IMG/VR virus record: IMGVR_UViG_3300049594_000559
Coordinates: 1 to 35,310 of that record
Length of the DNA: 35,310 nucleotides
From: a virus
Taxonomy: Duplodnaviria > Caudoviricetes
Reading direction: 5' to 3' (one strand)
The notes beneath the pieces were generated by a model. That model saw only the letters and a list, made by a program, of their open reading frames with translations. It was not told the origin of the DNA and searched no databases. The position numbers were made by a program, and so were the translations under genes. Positions 19,490-28,140 of this stretch are shown here, one piece after another. How positions within the stretch are numbered: the first letter of the stretch is position 1; each line of letters begins with the position of its first letter.

Positions 19490-20185
19490 ATGCAATTTCC
19501 AGCTTGCTACCAAGTTTATGGTCGCAATTTCTTCATCGAGCCTGCGAGCGCGCAATTCGCCAACGCAGTCTTCCAAGATGAGTATCAAATCAACGCTCTA
19601 AGGTCGCATCCCGTTCGATACATTCTCGATATTGGTGCCCACGTCGGTAGTTTCACGGTAATGTGCCATCAATTTTGGCCGGATGCAAAGATCGTAGCCG
19701 TTGAACCACACCCTGACAGTTTTGAACTGCTAGAACGCAACACTCAACACATTCCTAAAGACAAACTGACGCTCATCAATGCCGCCATTAGCAAAAAGAG
19801 CGGCAAATGCATTTTGGCATCCCCGGTCTCGCACAGTCGTGTCAGCGAATATGTGCCCACTATTTGGGATTCTATGGAGCCCAGGCCGAGCGACTTTGGT
19901 TTACAGGTGGATTCCATCACGCCCAAAGATCTGTGGCAACTCTTAGGTGACATCGGCATCAATGAGATCGATTTGTTAAAGCTCGACTGCGAAGGAGCTG
20001 AGTACCTGATCGTCTCCGAGTTATCAGCACTTGGGTTGATGGACCGCATCGGTTGGATCCGAGGCGAATGGCACAGTCGCAAAGATAATCAACTACTAGC
20101 CAATTTTCTGGGCCAGACGCATGTCTTCCATATCGATCCAAACTACCCGCACACTGTGGGGATGTTTGTGGCTCATCGGATCTAG
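19490..20185 (+). CDS. FkbM-family SAM-dependent methyltransferase
   Basis: Motifs ILDIGAHVGSF, AVEPHP and LLKLDCEGAEY. Confidence 0.92.
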   Translation: MQFPACYQVYGRNFFIEPASAQFANAVFQDEYQINALRSHPVRYILDIGAHVGSFTVMCHQFWPDAKIVAVEPHPDSFELLERNTQHIPKDKLTLINAAISKKSGKCILASPVSHSRVSEYVPTIWDSMEPRPSDFGLQVDSITPKDLWQLLGDIGINEIDLLKLDCEGAEYLIVSELSALGLMDRIGWIRGEWHSRKDNQLLANFLGQTHVFHIDPNYPHTVGMFVAHRI

Positions 20186-20467
20186 AAGCCGGCCTTTACC
20201 CAGCGACGGCGATCGCATTCCGTCATCGTGATACCACGGTTCGATAGGCTAATTCGAAAAGCAACACAAAAACATTTCATGCAGCGTGGATACTTTCCCG
20301 CTCGAAAGGCGTTTAACTCAATGTAAGTCTAAGTTCACGAAACTTTCTACGAACCAAGATTTTTTGCGAACCATCGCAGATCCAGAGCATCTATATATCT
20401 GTAGTCGCAACGAATCAAGTTGCGGACGATGTAACCTGAAAAGCAATCAATCACCGGAAACGGAACC

Positions 20468-20602
20468 ATGTCTTCCATACTCCCCAGTTACCAAAGGTCA
20501 ACAGAGACCAAACGATTTAATGGATACGAGAGTTGTATCGTGTCACAAGACGCGAATACGCTCGGCGGTGCCCATTTAGATCGGCATCCACATCGGAGGT
20601 AA
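20468..20602 (+). CDS. Candidate 44-aa leader peptide (MSSILPSYQR...DRHPHRR)
   Basis: ATG 20468 to TAA 20600-20602, preceded by purine-rich GGAAACGGAA; the stop codon lies inside the antiterminator strand. Confidence 0.55.
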   Translation: MSSILPSYQRSTETKRFNGYESCIVSQDANTLGGAHLDRHPHRR

Positions 20603-20663
20603 CACTGGGCTGTCTCAATATGGACAGTACTAACGAAACAACGTTGGCGAACCCGGTGTTACC
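20598..20663 (+). promoter_or_regulatory. Antiterminator helix of a candidate attenuator
   Basis: GGTAACACTGGG (20598-20609) pairs over 12 bp (one G-U) with CCCGGTGTTACC (20652-20663), the 5' arm of the terminator. Confidence 0.7.
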
Positions 20664-20687
20664 GCAAAAAGTGACACCGGGTTTTTT
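20650..20687 (+). terminator. Intrinsic terminator about 30 nt upstream of the first tRNA
   Basis: AACCCGGTGTTAC-loop-GTGACACCGGGTT stem running into a T6 tract. Confidence 0.85.
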
Positions 20688-20718
20688 CGTGCCTATTTCT
20701 AAGGAATTCCATACAAAC

Positions 20719-20790
20719 GGACTGGTAGCTGAGACGGTATAGCGGCGGTCTGAAGAACCGCAGAGGAGGGTTCGAGCACCTCCCAGTCCG
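20719..20790 (+). tRNA. trnF: tRNA-Phe(GAA)
   Basis: Acceptor GGACTGG/CCAGTCC; anticodon arm GCGGT-CTGAAGA-ACCGC; imperfect T stem. Confidence 0.8.
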
Positions 20791-20798
20791 CTGCTGCA

Positions 20799-20890
20799 AG
20801 CAGCAGAGCAGTAGACAAGAGAAAGTTGACTGTAGAGCGTTGGCAATGCGTCTACGGCGGTCTCTTTTCTAATCGCTACTCTCTGCTTTT
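20799..20890 (+). ncRNA. Unrecognised long hairpin RNA, copy 1
   Basis: AGCAGAG(C)AGTAG pairs with CTACTCTCTGCT leaving a bulged C; motif repeated at 21121. Confidence 0.5.
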
Positions 20891-20953
20891 GGGATCACAA
20901 AAGATCATATGAAAACAAGTGTGCTAGCGGTGCGCACCTACATAACCAACAAC

Positions 20954-21026
20954 GGCTCGTTCGACTTCTGGTGAGGTCACTGGTCTTTCAAGCCAGGCAG
21001 GTCGGGTTCAAATCCAACACGAGTCA
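20954..21026 (+). tRNA. trnE: tRNA-Glu(TTC)
   Basis: GGCTCGT/ACGAGTC; CTGGT-CTTTCAA-GCCAG; GGTTCAAATCC. Confidence 0.8.
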
Positions 21027-21041
21027 CTGACAAATACAAAT

Positions 21042-21109
21042 GGGCTTGCCGACGGGTCGGCGCTTTGACTTGCACTCAAGGCTTCAGGGTTCAACTCCCT
21101 GCAGGTCCA
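21042..21109 (+). tRNA. trnA: tRNA-Ala(TGC), shortened D arm
   Basis: GGGCTTG/CAGGTCC with G3:U70; loop CTTGCAC; T arm CAGGGTTCAACTCCCTG. Confidence 0.75.
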
Positions 21110-21120
21110 CTGGCGGCAAA

Positions 21121-21207
21121 GCCGCAGAGCAGTAGATACGGGAGAGTTGAAAGTAGAAGAGATGGCAAATTTTTCTGCCATCTGCTTTTTACCCACTACT
21201 CTCCGAC
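21121..21207 (+). ncRNA. Unrecognised long hairpin RNA, copy 2
   Basis: GCAGAGCAGTAGA...AGTTGA..GTAGA...TGGCAA...CTACTCTC shared with copy 1. Confidence 0.5.
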
Positions 21208-21211
21208 GATT

Positions 21212-21284
21212 CGGGCAGAGGTGCAGATGGGAGCACGCCTGCTTTGGGAGCAGGAGGATCTCGGTTCGACCCCGAGGTGCCCGA
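21212..21284 (+). tRNA. trnP: tRNA-Pro(TGG)
   Basis: CCTGC-TTTGGGA-GCAGG; CTCGGTTCGACCCCGAG. Confidence 0.85.
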
Positions 21285-21295
21285 CTTAACACGAT

Positions 21296-21367
21296 GGTAG
21301 TCGAGGGCTGGTTGTCCATACGCGGCTGATAACCGCGTCGCGCTGAGTTCGATTCTCAGGTCTACCA
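21296..21367 (+). tRNA. trnI: tRNA-Ile(GAT)
   Basis: CGCGG-CTGATAA-CCGCG; CTGAGTTCGATTCTCAG; atypical D arm. Confidence 0.8.
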
Positions 21368-21441
21368 CTGAACACCAATCCTTAAAGGAGAGCACGATGC
21401 AATTACATAGTCGCTTGAAACGCATAGCCATAACCAGTTAC

Positions 21442-21514
21442 GGGGTTGTGGTGTAGCAGGCAGCATGACGGACTTTTAATCCGTTCGGCGAGAGTTCGAT
21501 CCTCTCCGGCCCCA
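21442..21514 (+). tRNA. trnK: tRNA-Lys(TTT)
   Basis: ACGGA-CTTTTAA-TCCGT; GAGAGTTCGATCCTCTC. Confidence 0.9.
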
Positions 21515-21525
21515 CTCGCTTACCA

Positions 21526-21598
21526 CGGCGTGTAGCTCAGTGGTAAGAGCGGCGTCCTTATAAGACGTGAGTAGAAGGTTCGATTCCTTCCACGCCGA
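21526..21598 (+). tRNA. trnI: tRNA-Ile(TAT)
   Basis: Canonical cloverleaf: CGGCGTG/CACGCCG, TAGCTCAGTGGTAAGAGC, GCGTC-CTTATAA-GACGT. Confidence 0.9.
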
Positions 21599-21618
21599 CT
21601 TGGAAAGCAAACAGAAAT

Positions 21619-21691
21619 GGGATTGTGGCAGACAGGGTAATGCACCGGTCTCTTAAACCGGTCGATGTGGGTTCGATGCCCACCGATCCCA
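21619..21691 (+). tRNA. trnK: tRNA-Lys(CTT)
   Basis: CCGGT-CTCTTAA-ACCGG; GTGGGTTCGATGCCCAC. Confidence 0.9.
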
Positions 21692-21699
21692 CTGAATAA

Positions 21700-21770
21700 G
21701 CACTGATGGTCTAGTGGAATGACACCGCTTTCGTAAAGCGGCTGCGTGAGTTCGATTCTCACTCGGTGCT
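21700..21770 (+). tRNA. trnT: tRNA-Thr(CGT)
   Basis: GCACTGA/TCGGTGC; CCGCT-TTCGTAA-AGCGG. Confidence 0.9.
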
Positions 21771-21772
21771 CT

Positions 21773-21784
21773 TGATCTTTGACA
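21773..21784 (+). promoter_or_regulatory. boxA-like antitermination element
   Basis: TGATCTTTGACA matches the E. coli rrn boxA TGCTCTTTAACA at 10 of 12 positions; lies in a tRNA spacer. Confidence 0.55.
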
Positions 21785-21805
21785 ATTTGGTTGAGCCAAC
21801 AAAAG

Positions 21806-21876
21806 GCGTCCATGGTGTAGTGGTAACCCGTCTCCTTGCCAAGGAGGAATTGCGAGTTCGATTCTCGCTGGACGCT
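21806..21876 (+). tRNA. trnG: tRNA-Gly(GCC)
   Basis: GCGTCCA/TGGACGC, U73; TCTCC-TTGCCAA-GGAGG. Confidence 0.9.
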
Positions 21877-21886
21877 CTTCAATTAT

Positions 21887-21961
21887 CAGGGTGTGGGAAA
21901 GCCTGGCTACTCCGCGTGCTTCGGGAGCACGAGATCGTCGGTTCAAATCCGACCATCCTGA
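21887..21961 (+). tRNA. trnP: tRNA-Pro(CGG)
   Basis: CGTGC-TTCGGGA-GCACG; GTCGGTTCAAATCCGAC. Confidence 0.9.
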
Positions 21962-21977
21962 CTGTTAAGAAACATAT

Positions 21978-22052
21978 TCCGGTGGGTCCTGTGTTGGTAC
22001 GGGAAGGCGACTGTTAATCGCCCAGACGCAGGTTCGATTCCTGCTGCCGGAG
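21978..22052 (+). tRNA. trnN: tRNA-Asn(GTT)
   Basis: TCCGGTG/TGCCGGA, G73; GGCGA-CTGTTAA-TCGCC. Confidence 0.88.
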
Positions 22053-22064
22053 CTTTGGATACAT

Positions 22065-22149
22065 GGAAGGGCAAGCCGATGGGTGACGGCACTCCGTTCG
22101 AAGCGGAGCGAGCGTAAATGCCTTGCGAGTTCAACTCTCGCTCCTTCCG
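22065..22149 (+). tRNA. trnS: tRNA-Ser(CGA)
   Basis: CTCCG-TTCGAAG-CGGAG, long variable arm, G73. Confidence 0.88.
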
Positions 22150-22166
22150 CCTTGTGTTAGATAAAT

Positions 22167-22238
22167 GTGCCATTGGCCGAGCGGCAAAGGTCCTGGACTT
22201 CCAATCCGGTGAGGTCGGTTCGACTCCGACATGGCACT
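22167..22238 (+). tRNA. trnG: tRNA-Gly(TCC)
   Basis: GTGCCAT/ATGGCAC; CTGGA-CTTCCAA-TCCGG. Confidence 0.9.
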
Positions 22239-22258
22239 CTTTTTCTAGTTCGTAATTT

Positions 22259-22330
22259 ACAGGTGTGGGCCAATGGTAAGCCAGCTGCCTTTGAAGCAGT
22301 TAATTGGAGGTTCGAATCCTTCCGCCTGTG
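22259..22330 (+). tRNA. trnQ: tRNA-Gln(TTG)
   Basis: GCTGC-CTTTGAA-GCAGT; GGAGGTTCGAATCCTTC. Confidence 0.9.
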
Positions 22331-22350
22331 CTCTAGATGTAAGTCCATAC

Positions 22351-22425
22351 TCCGGAGTAGCAACTGTTGGTCGTTGCGTCTGGCTCTGAACCAGAAGCCC
22401 GCAGGTTCGATTCCTGCCTCCGGTG
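22351..22425 (+). tRNA. trnQ: tRNA-Gln(CTG)
   Basis: TCTGG-CTCTGAA-CCAGA; GCAGGTTCGATTCCTGC. Confidence 0.9.
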
Positions 22426-22439
22426 CTGAAATTTCAAAT

Positions 22440-22513
22440 GGTGGTCGTCCTGTATTGGTTCAGGAACTTGGCTGTGAACCAAGTCTATATCGGTTCAATT
22501 CCGTTCGATCACC
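22440..22513 (+). tRNA. trnH: tRNA-His(GTG)
   Basis: Encoded G-1 and C73; CTTGG-CTGTGAA-CCAAG. Confidence 0.85.
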
Positions 22514-22523
22514 CTCATGCATT

Positions 22524-22607
22524 GGAAGACATCCGGCCGGATGAGGACGCTGTCTTGAAAACAGCTGGCGCTAACAACGTTTCGGGGTTCGAGTCCCTGG
22601 TCTTCCG
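22524..22607 (+). tRNA. trnS: tRNA-Ser(TGA)
   Basis: GGAAGAC/GTCTTCC; GCTGT-CTTGAAA-ACAGC; long variable arm. Confidence 0.88.
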
Positions 22608-22624
22608 CTTTGAATGAAATAAAT

Positions 22625-22697
22625 AGTCCTGTGGCCCAGCGGCGAAGGCACCTGGTTTACATCCAGTTGATCGACGGTTCGAGTCCGTCCAGGACTA
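22625..22697 (+). tRNA. trnV: tRNA-Val(TAC)
   Basis: AGTCCTG/CAGGACT; CTGG-TTTACAT-CCAG. Confidence 0.88.
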
Positions 22698-22708
22698 CTC
22701 ATTGGAAT

Positions 22709-22779
22709 GGCGCTAATCCGCTTGGTGCGGGGCATGCCTGCAAAACATGCTCACTTGAGTTCGAATCTCACTAGCGCCT
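22709..22779 (+). tRNA. trnC: tRNA-Cys(GCA)
   Basis: GGCGCTA/TAGCGCC, U73; loop CTGCAAA; short D loop. Confidence 0.8.
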
Positions 22780-22790
22780 CTATCGTTAAT

Positions 22791-22865
22791 GGCCCATCGG
22801 TCCAGCCAGGAGTGGACGCTGCCCTGTCACGGCGGAGATCACCGGTTCAAATCCGGTATGGGTCG
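22791..22865 (+). tRNA. trnD: tRNA-Asp(GTC)
   Basis: CTGCC-CTGTCAC-GGCGG; ACCGGTTCAAATCCGGT; G73. Confidence 0.92.
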
Positions 22866-22877
22866 CTTGAATCAAAT

Positions 22878-22950
22878 GGTGTGGTACGCCAATGGCTGAG
22901 CGGCTTGTCTTAGAAGCAAGTGTTTGTGGGTTCGAATCCCACCCTCACCA
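22878..22950 (+). tRNA. trnL: tRNA-Leu(TAG), short variable loop
   Basis: CTTGT-CTTAGAA-GCAAG; 5-nt variable loop; A73. Confidence 0.85.
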
Positions 22951-22959
22951 CTTCTGTAT

Positions 22960-23033
22960 GACGTGGTACGCGAACTGGTACAGCGGCGAAGCTTAAACCT
23001 TCGCGATTGCGGGTTCAAATCCCGCCTGCGTCA
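22960..23033 (+). tRNA. trnL: tRNA-Leu(TAA), short variable loop
   Basis: CGAAG-CTTAAAC-CTTCG; 5-nt variable loop; A73. Confidence 0.85.
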
Positions 23034-23046
23034 CTTGAAAACTAAT

Positions 23047-23131
23047 GGGTCGATTGGACTTGGGAGTCCAAACTGTCTGTAAAACAGTCGCTCCTTGATG
23101 AGCAATGTAGGTTCGATTCCTTCTCGGCCCA
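23047..23131 (+). tRNA. trnY: tRNA-Tyr(GTA)
   Basis: ACTGT-CTGTAAA-ACAGT; long variable arm; GGGTCGA/TCGGCCC. Confidence 0.88.
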
Positions 23132-23148
23132 CTAATGCAAAAAATAAT

Positions 23149-23222
23149 GGCTCGGTGCGATATTGGTATTTGCAGTCAGCCCCCCAAGCCAGCGCTCGCC
23201 GGTTCGATTCCGGTCCGAGTCT
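23149..23222 (+). pseudogene. Degenerate tRNA-Gly(CCC)-like gene
   Basis: Acceptor GGCTCGG/CCGAGTC and T arm intact, U73; anticodon stem mismatched and loop CCCCCAA lacks U33. Confidence 0.6.
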
Positions 23223-23231
23223 CTCCTTATT

Positions 23232-23314
23232 CACGATGTGGTGGAACCGGTAGACACGCGACGCTCAGAACGTCGTGCCATCAAGGCGTAGGAGTTCGAC
23301 TCTCCTCTTCGTGA
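23232..23314 (+). tRNA. trnL: tRNA-Leu(CAG)
   Basis: TGGTGGAACCGGTAGACAC D arm; CGACG-CTCAGAA-CGTCG; long variable arm. Confidence 0.92.
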
Positions 23315-23323
23315 CTCTCTCAT

Positions 23324-23391
23324 TGCAGGCCAGTTGGTACTGAGCTGACTTTCATAAGGTCGGTAACCCGGTTCGATTCTGGGGCTTGCAA
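23324..23391 (+). tRNA. tRNA with CAT anticodon (Met or Ile2), shortened D arm
   Basis: TGCAGGC/GCTTGCA; loop TTCATAA; CCCGGTTCGATTCTGGG. Confidence 0.7.
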
Positions 23392-23394
23392 CAT

Positions 23395-23463
23395 TGCGGG
23401 TGAGCCAGCGTTCAACTGAGCCTCATAAGCTCGGACGGCCAGGTGCGACTCCTGGACCCGCCA
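23395..23463 (+). tRNA. trnM: tRNA-Met(CAT), initiator-like 1:72 mismatch, atypical D and T loops
   Basis: TGCGGGT/ACCCGCC; TGAGC-CTCATAA-GCTCG; T loop TGCGACT. Confidence 0.7.
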
Positions 23464-23474
23464 TTTCCTAAACT

Positions 23475-23550
23475 GGTTGAGTACGCAAACCGGAAAAGCG
23501 ACTTGGTCGAGAGCCAAGTGATTTTGCAGGTTCAAATCCTGTCTCAACCA
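23475..23550 (+). tRNA. trnL: tRNA-Leu(GAG), short variable loop, C33
   Basis: GGTTGAG/CTCAACC; CTTGG-TCGAGAG-CCAAG. Confidence 0.8.
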
Positions 23551-23561
23551 CCTTGTTTGAT

Positions 23562-23634
23562 GATCGCGTGGTCCAGCGGCTAAGACACCTGCATGACACG
23601 CAGGAAACCGAAGGTTCGATTCCTTCCGCGATCA
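23562..23634 (+). tRNA. trnV: tRNA-Val(GAC)
   Basis: GATCGCG/CGCGATC; CCTGC-ATGACAC-GCAGG. Confidence 0.9.
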
Positions 23635-23645
23635 CTAGTGGTAAT

Positions 23646-23716
23646 GGTTTGTAAGTGTTCCGGGAGCACGCGTTCTTGGTAAGAACGAAGATCGAGTTCG
23701 ATTCTCGAACGAACCT
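23646..23716 (+). tRNA. trnT: tRNA-Thr(GGT)
   Basis: CGTTC-TTGGTAA-GAACG; TCGAGTTCGATTCTCGA. Confidence 0.85.
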
Positions 23717-23727
23717 CTGTGTGAAAT

Positions 23728-23798
23728 GGGGTCATGGTCCAGCGGGAAGACATCGCCATGGCATGGCGAAAACCCGAGTTCGAATCTCGGTGATTCCA
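23728..23798 (+). tRNA. trnA: tRNA-Ala(GGC)
   Basis: GGGGTCA/TGATTCC with G3:U70; TCGCC-ATGGCAT-GGCGA. Confidence 0.9.
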
Positions 23799-23808
23799 CT
23801 TAGCATTT

Positions 23809-23893
23809 GGAAGGTAGCCAGATACGGTTTGCTGGGCTGCACTGCTAACGCAGTTCTCGTCATGAGATGAGGGTTCGACTCCCTTGCCTTCCG
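23809..23893 (+). tRNA. trnS: tRNA-Ser(GCT)
   Basis: Loop CTGCTAA; long variable arm; GGAAGGT/GCCTTCC, G73. Confidence 0.88.
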
Positions 23894-23927
23894 CTCCGTT
23901 GGCTCAACCGATTGGCAAGGACAACAT

Positions 23928-23999
23928 GGCTCGATGGTGAAGCGGACATCATCTCTCGCTTCTAACGAGAAGTTCCAGGTTCGATTCCTGGTCGAGCTA
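23928..23999 (+). tRNA. trnR: tRNA-Arg(TCT)
   Basis: TCTCG-CTTCTAA-CGAGA; CCAGGTTCGATTCCTGG. Confidence 0.9.
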
Positions 24000-24002
24000 C
24001 TG

Positions 24003-24157
24003 ACGATCGACTGCCGAGTTGGAGTACATGCTTAAGGAGCCGGATGTCGTGGGTTCGAATCCCACCGGCGCGACTTTGATGCAAATCAAAGCGCCGTAGC
24101 TCAGCCTGGATAGAGCGCCGAAAACCCTCTGACACATTACCTCGTCGATCGTTTTTT
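24003..24157 (+). ncRNA. yrlA: YrlA-like Y RNA 1 (permuted tRNA-mimic domain)
   Basis: Terminal stem ACGATCGAC/GTCGATCGT; internal order T arm, closed acceptor stem, D arm; U tail; Ro60 gene nearby. Confidence 0.85.
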
Positions 24158-24163
24158 CGTACA

Positions 24164-24272
24164 TCACTTGACTGCCGGTTCGGAGTACATGGTTTAGCTG
24201 GTTCGATTCCCGCCGGCCCGACTTGAAACATGGCGGGCCGATCTCTGGCCACAACCTCGTCAGGTGACTTTT
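24164..24272 (+). ncRNA. Y-RNA-like RNA 2 (T loop and acceptor-like stem, no D arm)
   Basis: GACTGCC-N5-GGAGTACAT...CCTCGTC core; TCACTTGAC/GTCAGGTGA closing stem. Confidence 0.75.
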
Positions 24273-24378
24273 GCAAATCACAGAATAACAACGAACGTCG
24301 CGGCAATTGTGACTGTCGTTTTATTAACCCACCAACAACCCCTTCGGATCTTCAAAAGGCAAACAGAATGGACTAAGC

Positions 24379-25020
24379 ATGAACACCATTGCAGCAACTC
24401 TCGACAACTACATGACGCCTGTCGCCTTGAGTCCGACGCTTCAGCGGCCAACGTTGGTGCTGAACCGTAACTGGCAGCCGATCAACGTGGCGACGGTTGC
24501 GCGTGCTTTGATCTTGCTCTGGAACGACTCGGCTAAGATCGTCGATCCAGCGGATTACCAGGTGTACGACTGGAGCGACTGGAGCCGATTGGCTCCGGAT
24601 CGCGATGAGCCGTTCATCCAATCGGTCCGTCAGCGCATTCGAATTCCGGAAGTCATTGCATTGACCAAGTTTGATGCTATGCCGACACAGACGGTTACCT
24701 TCAGCCGCCGAAACGTATTCAAGCGTGACAAGATGACCTGCCAATACTGTGGAAAGCAGCCTGGCAGCGAAGAACTCACGATTGACCACGTTGTACCTCG
24801 TGCTCAGGGTGGACTGTCGACCTGGACAAACTGCGTATTGGCTTGCATCGACTGCAATTCGCGAAAGGCCGACCGTACTCCAGCACAGGCACATATGAAG
24901 CTTCGCAAGGAGCCAGTGCGTCCAGCTTGGAAGCCAATCTACGCCGATCGAATGAATCGCGTGAAGAGTTGGTCCAAGTTCATTAGCGACTCGTACTGGA
25001 ATGTAGAGCTCGAAGATTGA
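24379..25020 (+). CDS. HNH endonuclease (McrA-like)
   Basis: FSRRNVFKRD..CQYCG, TIDHVVPRAQGG..W.NCVLAC..CN..K. Confidence 0.93.
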   Translation: MNTIAATLDNYMTPVALSPTLQRPTLVLNRNWQPINVATVARALILLWNDSAKIVDPADYQVYDWSDWSRLAPDRDEPFIQSVRQRIRIPEVIALTKFDAMPTQTVTFSRRNVFKRDKMTCQYCGKQPGSEELTIDHVVPRAQGGLSTWTNCVLACIDCNSRKADRTPAQAHMKLRKEPVRPAWKPIYADRMNRVKSWSKFISDSYWNVELED

Positions 25021-25058
25021 TAACCGCAGAAGCTCAGTTCGCTGGGCTTCTGCCATAT

Positions 25059-25128
25059 AGGAATGTTCGCCTGGGAGCGGACTCGGCCTCCAAAGCCGAT
25101 GGACAGTGTTCGAATCACTGCGTTCCTG
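25059..25128 (+). tRNA. trnW: tRNA-Trp(CCA)
   Basis: AGGAATG/CGTTCCT, G73; TCGGC-CTCCAAA-GCCGA. Confidence 0.85.
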
Positions 25129-25135
25129 CTGACTT

Positions 25136-25209
25136 GCCGATGTGGCTCGACTGAGAAAGGCACCTGTCTTGTAAACAGGTTCATGCTGGTGCGAATCCAG
25201 TCATCGGCT
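25136..25209 (+). tRNA. trnT: tRNA-Thr(TGT)
   Basis: GCCGATG/CATCGGC; CCTGT-CTTGTAA-ACAGG; T loop TGCGAAT. Confidence 0.85.
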
Positions 25210-25212
25210 CTG

Positions 25213-25285: not shown

Positions 25286-25332
25286 ATTTACTGATTCGTC
25301 GCAATGGGAAAACCGTTGCGGCGAGTCTTTTC

Positions 25333-25459
25333 GACTGACTGCCAAGTCGGATTACATGTGTCGTGAGTTCGAATCTCATCAGCGTCTGCAAGGATGCTGT
25401 AGCTCAGTTGGCAGAGCAATGTCTAGAACAATCTGATTTTCACTTCGTCAGTCTTTTTT
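25333..25459 (+). ncRNA. yrlA: YrlA-like Y RNA 4 (permuted tRNA-mimic domain)
   Basis: GACTGAC/GTCAGTC stem; T arm GTGAGTTCGAATCTCAT, closed acceptor CAGCGTC/GATGCTG, D arm TAGCTCAGTTGGCAGAGC; U6 tail. Confidence 0.85.
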
Positions 25460-25658: not shown

Positions 25659-27317
25659 ATGGCAAACAAGTCACTATTCGCAAGCATGCTTGGCCGATTG
25701 CCGCAGGCTAACGCGGTCAACGAAGCAGGTGGCCGCGCGTACAAGCTCGACCCGAAGCACGCCCTGGCACAGATTGCCGCTACGGGTACGTTTGGGAACG
25801 CGTTCTACAGCACTGCTGAAACGCAGCTTGACGAAGTGCTGAAGTTGATTGATGAGGTCGACGACAACCAGTACTTGGCGAAGCTGGCACTGTACGCTCG
25901 CGAAAAGGCGTTCATGAAGGATATGCCGGCTGCATTGCTGGTCGCACTGTCGGTTCGGGATACCGAGCTGATGCACCGAGTATTTGATCGCGTGGTCGAT
26001 AACGGTCGCGTTCTGCGCACTGTGTTTCAGATGATTCGATCTGGCCAGTTCAAGAACAAGGCAGGTAAGAGCCGCTTTGGTTTGTCGAGCTCTGTACAGC
26101 GAGCGTTCCAGCGCTGGTTGAACACGGCCTCGGTCGGAAAGCTGTTGAGCGCATCAATCGGTAACGATCCGAGCTTGCGGGACATCCTGCGTATGGCTCG
26201 ACCGACGCCGAAGGATAACGCTCGCCGGGCGATGTTCGGTTGGTTGACGGATAAGTCGATCGACAAGTGGGCGCCGGCAACGGAAGTTGACTTGCCGGTT
26301 GAAGTTCAGGCGCTGATCGCGTACCGAAACTCGGAAAGCGAAGAAGCACAAGCCTTGATCGCTGGTGGACTGGATAACGTCCGCTGGGACTTGCTCGCTG
26401 ATGCTGCCAAGGGACCGAAGGTTTGGGCTGCACTGGCTCGCAAGATGGGTCCGCAGGCATTGCGTATGAACTTGAACACGTTGCTACGACACGATGTGTT
26501 CAACTTAGAACGATTGTCCCAATCGTCCAGCAACATGGTCGAGTACGTCGCAGACCGGATCGCTGACGAGTCGGAGATCCGACGTTCGAAGCAGTTCCCG
26601 TACCAGTACTTCGCTGCGTACTTGAACGCAGATGACAATGTTCCGCAGAAGATCAAGACTGCGCTGCATAAGGCAGCCGAGATCGCTTGTGGAAACGTAC
26701 CGGAGTTGCCAGGTCCGGTTGTTATTGGTCTGGATACTTCTGGATCGATGAGCAGCGCAGTAACGGGACAGCGTGGACACGGTGCAACTTCGAAGATGCG
26801 CTGCATCGACGTGGCAGCACTGTTCGCCGCAGCGATCCTGCGACGCAACCCGGACAGCGTTGTGATTCCGTTCGATACTTCGGCTTACGATGCCAAGATC
26901 GATCCAAACGATTCGATTTTGAGCATTGCTGAACGGTTGGCAAAGTACGGTGGTGGCGGAACAGATTGTTCGCTGCCGCTAGTTGCTGCCAACCAGAGGC
27001 ATGCAAAGCGTAAGTTCGCTGGCGTCGTTCTCGTTAGCGATAACGAGAGCTGGATTGGAACAGGACGGCACGGTTCGACCCGTGTGATGACGGCTTGGGA
27101 AGCCTTCGTTGCCAACCAACGCAAGCTGGCTGGTAAGGAAGCAGCTCCGAAGCTGATCAACATCGATCTGCAGCCGTACCAGACGGTTCAGGCTTGCGAG
27201 CGAGCTGACATTATGAACATCGGTGGCTTCAGTGACTCCGTGTTCAACGTGATCAGTGCGTTCCTGGCCGACAACAACCAGCGATTCGTCGCGGAAGTTG
27301 AAGCGATCGAACTGTAA
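25659..27317 (+). CDS. rsr: Ro60/Rsr TROVE-domain RNA-binding protein
   Basis: N-terminal [16 protein letters not shown], v[28 protein letters not shown] and IGGFSDSVF; SD AGGAG. Confidence 0.95.
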
Positions 27318-27434
27318 ACGCGAGTTGGACTCCGGTCCAACTTCGGTATACTTGAAACTTGGGCACCCGCCGGTCGGAACACGATCAGCGAGTGTTGTTA
27401 TTTGATGAATAGAAACAGCGCGGAGAGACGGTCA

Positions 27435-27833
27435 ATGGAAGAAACAGACGCACCAAACATAAAGCAGGTCATCGTCATGCGACACGACCTGAAGATGCGC
27501 AGAGGAAAGCAGATCGCTCAGGGGGCTCACGCTTCTATGTCGTTTCTTACGCGCAAATTGCAGAGCAAATCATCTATTTGCATGGATGATTTTACGTCCA
27601 ACCAGCAAACCTGGATTATGGGGTCGTTTGCGAAGGTGTGCGTTCGCTGCAATAGCGAAGAGGAACTGATGGCGATTCACGACAGAGCCGTCGAAATGGG
27701 GCTTGAGGTCCACTTGATCACTGACAGCGGCCGAACCGAATTTCACGGGGAACCAACTCGAACTTGTTTGGCTATTGGACCTGATGAAGCATCTAAGATA
27801 GATCAGGTGACGGGCCACCTTGAGTTGCTTTAG
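27435..27833 (+). CDS. pth2: Peptidyl-tRNA hydrolase, Pth2 type
   Basis: KQVIVMRHDLKMRRGKQIAQGAHAS, DSGRTEF and TCLAIGP. Alternative start near 27402. Confidence 0.93.
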   Translation: MEETDAPNIKQVIVMRHDLKMRRGKQIAQGAHASMSFLTRKLQSKSSICMDDFTSNQQTWIMGSFAKVCVRCNSEEELMAIHDRAVEMGLEVHLITDSGRTEFHGEPTRTCLAIGPDEASKIDQVTGHLELL

Positions 27834-27898: not shown

Positions 27899-28084
27899 CA
27901 GTACCTAATCATTTCCGATCTATAAGCCCCTGGCTTGATGGACCGAATCGACTGGATCTGCGGCGAGTGGCACGGTCGCAAAGATAACAAACGGCTTGCC
28001 AATTTCCTAAGCCAGACACATCTCTTCCGTATCCATCCCAACTATCAAGAAACGAGGGATATGTTTATGGCTCAGCGGATCTAG
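27899..28084 (+). pseudogene. Degenerate duplicate of the 3' end of the FkbM gene
   Basis: Gapless alignment to 20000-20185; 42 mismatches in 186 nt by hand count (about 77% identity); in-frame TAA; same terminal ATC TAG. Confidence 0.9.
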
Positions 28085-28140
28085 AGGCTGCATGTTGACG
28101 CAATTGATCCTCGGATTTGCAAACTATCGCTGTAACAACT

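Follow-up and report, generated by a model that had tools for sequence, protein, structure and literature searches.

A conserved four-segment, attenuator-like leader ahead of long tRNA arrays in Planctomycetia

A leader laid out like a four-segment transcription attenuator stands ahead of long tRNA arrays across Planctomycetia, and comparison of its sequence among many loci supports it well as a real, conserved element. We studied it in the window, by which we mean the whole 35,310-nt stretch of a viral record (IMG/VR IMGVR_UViG_3300049594_000559), where it precedes an operon of tRNA genes, YrlA-like RNAs, an HNH gene, Ro60 and Pth2. In aligned leaders, a promoter motif, an open upstream reading frame (uORF), four pairing segments and a T tract are conserved in that order ahead of the arrays. 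The leader is probably a ribosome-coupled transcription attenuator that gates the operon and turns it ON when a ribosome stalls.

The window is a prophage-like record, with terminase, portal and capsid genes to the left and serine recombinase and ParB-like genes to the right (Pfam). The module, flanked on one side by an FkbM methyltransferase gene and on the other by the recombinase block, is on the plus strand, as are all of its parts and those of its leader. It comprises 32 tRNA genes, an HNH gene, two YrlA-like RNAs, Ro60 and Pth2. The tRNA genes, as called by ARAGORN, occupy positions 20719-25210, and Rfam adds one more at 20954-21026. With 32 tRNAs within 4.5 kb, a long non-repetitive run and a patchy distribution, the cluster is an L-array. 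One of its genes (21526-21599) encodes a tRNA-Ile with a UAU anticodon, which is uncommon in bacteria. The HNH endonuclease gene (24379-25020; Pfam HNH_5 and HNH) is situated within the array, and a Ro60/TROVE-vWA gene (25659-27317; Pfam vWA_Ro60 and TROVE, with the NCBIfam Rsr model below its cut-off) and a Pth2 peptidyl-tRNA hydrolase gene (27402-27833; Pfam PTH2, with TIGR00283 above its cut-off) follow. Pfam thus backs the Ro60 and Pth2 genes that a first-pass annotation had read from the letters, and adds the HNH gene. The same annotation placed a Y RNA in the operon. Two matches to the YrlA family (Rfam RF02553), both at most 2 kb from Ro60, are present at 24021-24147 (42.2 bits, E 4.8e-7) and 25332-25457 (47 bits, E 2e-8), but both score under the gathering threshold of 69, and we call these RNAs YrlA-like. 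Nearly all Ro60 relatives at up to 95% identity come from records labelled Planctomycetota, mostly Pirellulaceae.

Several repeated sequences accompany the module. A direct repeat of 189 bp (78% identity), consisting of the 3' end of the FkbM gene, occurs at 20001-20189 and 27900-28088; it brackets the entire leader-tRNA-Ro60-Pth2 module, which suggests that the module was gained or exchanged by recombination. Two related long-hairpin elements of about 85 nt lie between tRNA genes (about 20804-20886 and 21124-21206); they have no match in Rfam and could be another Y-like RNA. The short motif ACTGCC...TACAT appears five times (about 24009, 24172, 25219, 25338 and 25567), and two of these copies overlap the YrlA-like matches, so further Y-like RNAs may be present.

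The leader begins with a promoter motif, GAACC-N17-TCTA, at 20368-20393, from which transcription would start near 20400. We take the motif to be of the ECF-sigma type, partly from general knowledge and partly from its likeness to the -35 element of sigmaE promoters. That element is given as GGAACTT (PMC3326320). GAACC-N17/18-TCTA stands upstream of the uORF in related leaders as well, with a clear motif in 69 of 79. A matrix trained without the window scored the 20368 site at 24.7 bits, and the runners-up in the 35 kb at 14.0 (on the minus strand) and 9.1. Taken by itself, the ECF pattern occurs in the window no more often than chance predicts (5 occurrences against 5.1), so the promoter assignment is carried entirely by the matrix score and the conserved position. 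Scanning for sigma-70 promoters gave none at the leader. Attenuation as first proposed supposes that the array has no promoter of its own downstream of 20687; the best matrix score inside the operon is 9.0 bits, against a fifth percentile of 17 in the training set, which leaves no strong second promoter of the ECF type there. Weaker copies of the -35 word occur in the window at about 20351, and several tandem -35 words precede the leader at another locus (L024, 2321-2470).

Downstream of a predicted 5' hairpin (20405-20425), echoed by similar inverted repeats in one subfamily alignment (A4), the leader contains a uORF of 44 codons plus TAA (20468-20602), which ends CAT CGG AGG TAA. Its stop codon (20600-20602) lies inside the antiterminator strand, as the first-pass annotation had noticed, and all the codons that it had singled out (ATA, AGG, CGA, TTA and CGG) are present. 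This strand, GGTAACACTGGG (20598-20609), is segment 2, and it pairs over 12 bp, one of them G-U, with segment 3 (20652-20663). Segment 3 is also the 5' arm of an intrinsic-terminator-like hairpin (20652-20687), in which 20652-20662 pairs with segment 4 (20671-20681) ahead of six T residues (20682-20687), and the two helices are therefore mutually exclusive. The T tract ends 31 nt before the first gene of the array, a tRNA-Phe starting at 20719. Both the exclusive pairing and the distance of about 30 nt described earlier are confirmed. A simple terminator scan missed the hairpin, and folding revealed it. Locally, the terminator fold reaches -37.3 kcal/mol, compared to -33.0 kcal/mol when the antiterminator is forced. 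The best upstream partner of the terminator arm pairs at -22.0, whereas shuffled leaders give -13.5 +/- 2.2 and none of 300 does as well, and a 151-nt region folds with z = -3.2, matched by 0 of 200 shuffles. Segment 1 (20483-20492, codons 6-9) nearly repeats the 5' arm of the terminator and forms 10 bp with segment 2 at -15.3 kcal/mol. Two predicted spacer hairpins (20610-20627 and 20630-20647) would bring segments 2 and 3 together, and the first is gained or lost as one unit among relatives.

Within the uORF, a further hairpin at 20535-20559 is a candidate polymerase pause or pacing hairpin. It is present in both subfamilies with differing sequences (81% and 86% of alignment cells paired), and the folding excess in the uORF is highest 48-54 nt ahead of the stop. 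Among assembled contigs of relatives in public RNA data, run X17 has one of 236 nt that spans 20477-20695 and one of 582 nt that runs from the leader across the terminator into the first tRNAs; such contigs carry no information on strand, end or level, may be DNA, and are not used as evidence here. No cis-regulatory family of Rfam 15 matches 20200-20718 at its gathering score or at E values up to 5.

We assembled related leaders with a terminator-pattern search, which matched 51 of 401 class-level genomes (a set with many incomplete ones), at least 121 metagenome stretches and 41 viral ones. Among the distinct matches listed (at least 225), 93, the window included, have a tRNA on the same strand within 600 nt and at least 250 nt of upstream sequence. 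Such selection favors the element, and the search pattern fixes the terminator sequence in most loci, so the invariance of the terminator is by construction. The stop codon falls at the arm-pairing position in 79 of the 93 loci and is missing from it in 14, and a stop in segment 2 is in part what pairing with the arm's conserved TCA/TTA would dictate. The 69 leaders with a clear promoter motif were reduced to 56 below 85% identity, with a median identity of 35%. Separately, 79 loci were collected through Ro60 alone. In this collection the terminator is present at 13 of 13 loci where the start of the array is visible and 8 or more tRNAs follow, and the stop is off register in two of these (L042 and L065).

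Across the non-redundant leaders, the reading frame and the helices that use its end are conserved together. An in-frame ATG ORF that ends in segment 2 is open in 55 of 56, while the other two frames are open in 6 and 2; in the sole exception (L169), the frame is shifted and stops about 15 nt later. The uORFs span 32-69 codons, with the ATG 24-100 nt after the inferred transcription start. In the 6 leaders whose arm places a G across from the first base of the stop, T is retained as a G-U pair rather than replaced by C. Indels are multiples of three in 17 of 39 cases within the ORF and 18 of 84 outside it; these counts are suggestive, but they depend on the alignment and carry no weight in what follows. 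In the 2:3 antiterminator helix, 87.6% of 606 cells are paired and 13 changes are two-sided, which 0 of 500 shuffles attained, and registers slid along the alignment are 29-48% paired. The shuffle controls, here and below, ignore the relatedness of the leaders. The 3:4 terminator is 90.9% paired with covariation only at shuffle level, which is uninformative given the search pattern. The first-pass annotation had proposed looking for covariation of its three strands and for a conserved stop position upstream of homologous arrays; the 2:3 helix covaries, and the stop keeps its position in 79 of the 93 loci. Ahead of tRNA arrays, then, the uORF, its stop in the antiterminator, the terminator and a promoter further upstream are conserved as a set.

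The comparison also brought out a fourth strand, which that annotation had not included. In 32 of 55 leaders, segment 2 has its best upstream partner starting 3-24 nt past the ATG, where about 15% would be expected; in the other 23 that partner lies elsewhere. In a subfamily of 21 leaders, the 1:2 helix has two-sided changes at 8 of 13 pairs (0 of 500 shuffles as high). The 14-leader subfamily that includes the window has 80% of cells paired, and its covariation is weak and not significant, with 44 of 500 shuffles reaching it. By these alignments, a strand at codons 4-10 pairs with the antiterminator, and the design is a four-segment one like those of trp and rli80. Segment 1 also explains the conserved start of the peptide, with its ATA and CGG codons, as an RNA constraint.

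For a comparison in which hits were not selected on tRNAs, we built a covariance model from the 3' core of the element; 17 of 151 phylum-level genomes matched, and the model was also run on five chosen genomes. Of 29 hits examined, a set that omits most already-included loci, partial and opposite-strand echoes and the weakest rows, 14 have tRNAs within 1.5 kb. All 14 carry the register stop, and 12 have the ATG ORF and 12 the promoter motif. The register stop is present in 3 of the 15 hits without tRNAs. The strong hits all fall within genomes originally drawn at class level, and three weak hits examined from other genomes are plain terminators; among the genomes searched, the element was not found outside the class. 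We conclude from these alignments and searches that the element is conserved across Planctomycetia ahead of tRNA arrays. Of the 41 viral matches to the terminator pattern, one (L236) is a leader with a tRNA array, and most resemble unrelated terminators; no relatives of the HNH or Ro60 proteins were found in the viral collection.

The loci vary in their surroundings. Two genomes (G021 and G027) have three tRNA clusters each, every one with its own leader. A few leaders sit before protein genes rather than tRNAs, among them copies ahead of a gene for a 75-aa protein without a Pfam or NCBIfam family (L127, 177-404, minus strand) and a YbjN-domain gene (L166, 1781-2566, minus strand). At L021 (9392-15891), Ro60 is followed by the array with its leader on the other strand, so array and Ro60 need not form a single operon. 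An apparent group II intron with a reverse-transcriptase ORF is inserted directly after the terminator of L143. In four variant leaders (L042, L065, L285 and L286), the helix at the stop is weak, and the terminator arm has an alternative partner of 7 bp some 50 nt further upstream. In L065, where the 2:3 helix is weak, an ORF of 63 codons is kept and ends 29 nt before the arm.

To ask how the folds would respond to a ribosome, we simulated leaders cut after segment 3, with the ribosome footprint kept unpaired; the results are equilibrium rather than kinetic folds. The antiterminator exceeds P = 0.5 in 46, 50 and 49 of 55 leaders with the P site at codons 1, 4 and 8, declines to 39, 33, 30 and 27 with the P site at codons 12-24, and does so in none of the 55 at codons -3 and -1. 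When pairing of upstream RNA across the ribosome is disallowed, 53-55 of the 55 leaders are ON at any position up to codon -4. In full-length, ribosome-free RNA, the terminator exceeds P = 0.5 in 55 of 55. In this equilibrium simulation, then, ribosome position decides the fold. We propose that the ECF-type promoter yields a leader of about 290 nt, on which a ribosome at the last three codons or the stop would cover segment 2 and leave the 3:4 terminator to form (OFF). After release, segment 1 could take segment 2, so that OFF would not depend on the ribosome lingering. A ribosome stuck early, best at codons 1-12 where it covers segment 1, would let segment 2 pair with segment 3 and polymerase read through into the array. 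With the ribosome absent, the 1:2 helix would form, and termination would be the default of the family.

It is over this default that we depart from the first-pass annotation, in which three segments make the switch, only a ribosome at the stop gives OFF, and stalling and a lack of translation both give ON. The window itself offers some support for that scheme: its 2:3 helix (-22.0) is stronger than its 1:2 helix (-15.3), and its ribosome-free fold, with the terminator arm just out, favors the antiterminator at equilibrium (P = 0.99), as do 26 of 55 leaders at P > 0.5, so the window copy may be leaky. The 1:2 helix is nevertheless conserved and covarying, and in 31 of 55 leaders, the window included (P = 0.73), segment 1 already holds segment 2 before segment 3 emerges. 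An anti-antiterminator at codons 4-10 would thus probably sequester segment 2 in the absence of a ribosome and make no translation an OFF state, and we think the three-segment scheme unlikely. What the four-segment leader senses would be ribosome progress as such, as affected by drugs or by uncharged or cleaved tRNA, rather than one amino acid. The uORF peptide appears to evolve almost neutrally (pN/pS 0.84 in mid-ORF and 0.88 at codons -5 to -3, from 20 disjoint pairs), which fits the general sensing proposed at the outset, and no single-residue run is present (the commonest residue makes up 10-22%, with 11-20 residue kinds per peptide). General ribosome progress is the simplest reading of the signal. 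Rare codons, which had been put forward as the sensor, did not hold up, as the 12 rarest make up 13% of codons in frame and 14-17% out of frame; rare-codon sensing was rejected on this control. Sensing of all amino acids was set aside because residue kinds per peptide match shuffled peptides (mean 16.6 against 16.2); the window's 19 is reached by 19% of its own shuffles. An arrest peptide formed by a conserved C-terminus was likewise dropped, the pN/pS of 0.88 at codons -5 to -3 being unsupportive.

A specific signal would nonetheless be read if the peptide arrested the ribosome, or sensed one particular tRNA or drug, through its C-terminal (H/Y)P(L/H)R(L/R) motif or through the penultimate Arg. 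The penultimate codon is CGN, with all four such codons in use, in 50 of 55 leaders; Pro is at -4 in 35 of 55, again from all four codons; and at codons -2 and -1, with about 12 changes to go by, pN/pS falls to 0.33. ATA and AGG are enriched about five-fold, and the array carries tRNAs with UAU and UCU anticodons. Against this, none of the 55 leaders uses AGR for the Arg at -2, as a CG constraint on the RNA would have it; 25 of 39 ATA and 24 of 33 AGG codons fall within paired segments; the R/K-x-R/K arrest motif is not conserved (19 of 55 peptides); and a ribosome held on the final codons would mask segment 2 and give OFF. We therefore regard specific sensing as quite improbable. Read-through could also be set by a protein (through Ro60 feedback or a phage antiterminator, for instance) or by a leaky terminator, with the leader a constitutive gene for a small RNA or peptide. 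The window is prophage-like, its operon encodes an RNA-binding protein, and no clear ribosome-binding site is seen, Shine-Dalgarno pairing across the leaders being no better than background (median -3.3 against -3.2 kcal/mol). Such a gene, however, leaves unexplained why a drifting peptide keeps an open frame, positioned from ATG to antiterminator, in 55 of 56 leaders, and why two covarying alternative helices share segment 2. We consider it very improbable, and retain the ribosome-coupled, four-segment attenuator.

Long tRNA arrays are widespread and have long been regarded as cryptic. The one that has been tested, in Anabaena, is switched on under translation stress by way of a repressor (PMC8421152; PMC10272220). 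We lean toward viewing the planctomycete module as a self-contained, mobile translation rescue cassette of spare tRNAs, Y-like RNAs, Ro60 and Pth2, with a four-part leader that reads stalling directly. Such a cassette would need only an ECF sigma factor from its host, so it could work on arrival and be repeated before two or three arrays in a genome. If this is right, planctomycete arrays should be inducible by stress, with failing translation raising the supply of tRNAs and the rescue of RNA and peptidyl-tRNA through a feedback without a protein regulator, and the Ro60 operon would be linked to ribosome stalling instead of tRNA-fragment sensing. The leader would then be the first described case of direct leader-peptide attenuation of tRNA genes in bacterial chromosomes. 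It also defines an RNA family that Rfam lacks.

The comparable operons cited in the first-pass annotation are indeed under protein control. The Anabaena trn L-array is long, horizontally spread and silent until translation is impaired, and is controlled by TrcR, a ribbon-helix-helix repressor that binds promoter repeats (PMC8421152; PMC10272220); the planctomycete arrays resemble it as L-arrays, and Planctomycetes are named among L-array phyla (PMC8421152). The main text of PMC8421152 does not contain the words "attenuat", "leader" or "terminator". The Salmonella rsr-yrlBA-rtcBA operon shares Ro60, a Y RNA and a link to tRNA damage with the planctomycete module. Its activator, RtcR, is a tRNA-fragment-binding protein with a CARF domain; the operon lacks a tRNA array, and no leader switch is mentioned in the abstract (PMC7790460). 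The available portions of PMC4833913 and PMC4201824 do not describe the planctomycete leader element. The earlier statement that no attenuator was known for a tRNA array agrees with our searches of an open-access library, which turned up no paper on a leader-peptide attenuator before a tRNA array or on the planctomycete leader. The leader would thus be a third solution alongside TrcR and RtcR.

Its architecture has closer relatives. The trp, his and pheA attenuators form alternative 1:2, 2:3 and 3:4 helices and are OFF without translation. The planctomycete leader shares these helices, the predicted OFF state and possibly a pause hairpin; it has the anti-antiterminator 1:2 helix but no control-codon run, and its targets are RNA genes rather than biosynthetic enzymes. 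In the Listeria rli80/hflXr leader, a start-codon mutant is OFF and an anti-antiterminator mutant is constitutive, outcomes that we would predict here, and its uORF likewise contains an anti-antiterminator and is followed by an antiterminator and a terminator (PMC6310831). The rli80 peptide has 14 codons and an RLR macrolide motif, and the leader controls one ribosome-splitting gene (PMC6310831), whereas the planctomycete uORFs have 32-69 codons, no conserved arrest motif and a stop within the antiterminator. In the actinobacterial whiB7/wblC leader, efficient translation leads to an intrinsic terminator, and stalling to an antiterminator and read-through (bioRxiv 10.1101/2023.06.02.543512); six tRNA genes and a peptidyl-tRNA hydrolase belong to the WblC regulon (PMC7157823). 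A long uORF of mixed composition and a general translation-stress logic are common to the two, which come from different phyla and are likened here in working logic. The whiB7 uORF is Ala-rich, while Ala is 6.9% in the planctomycete leaders against a background of 9.8%; with this and with tRNA genes downstream, the planctomycete leader works similarly without being a member of the whiB7/wblC family. The first-pass annotation had not named this close precedent. The whiB7/wblC leader does share the logic, but what is published has it gate a transcription factor and no tRNA array directly, so that its control of tRNAs is indirect, whereas the planctomycete switch would act directly on the array. 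The logic is already known for antibiotic-stress genes; its proposed use in gating tRNA arrays is, as far as the open-access literature was searched, new.
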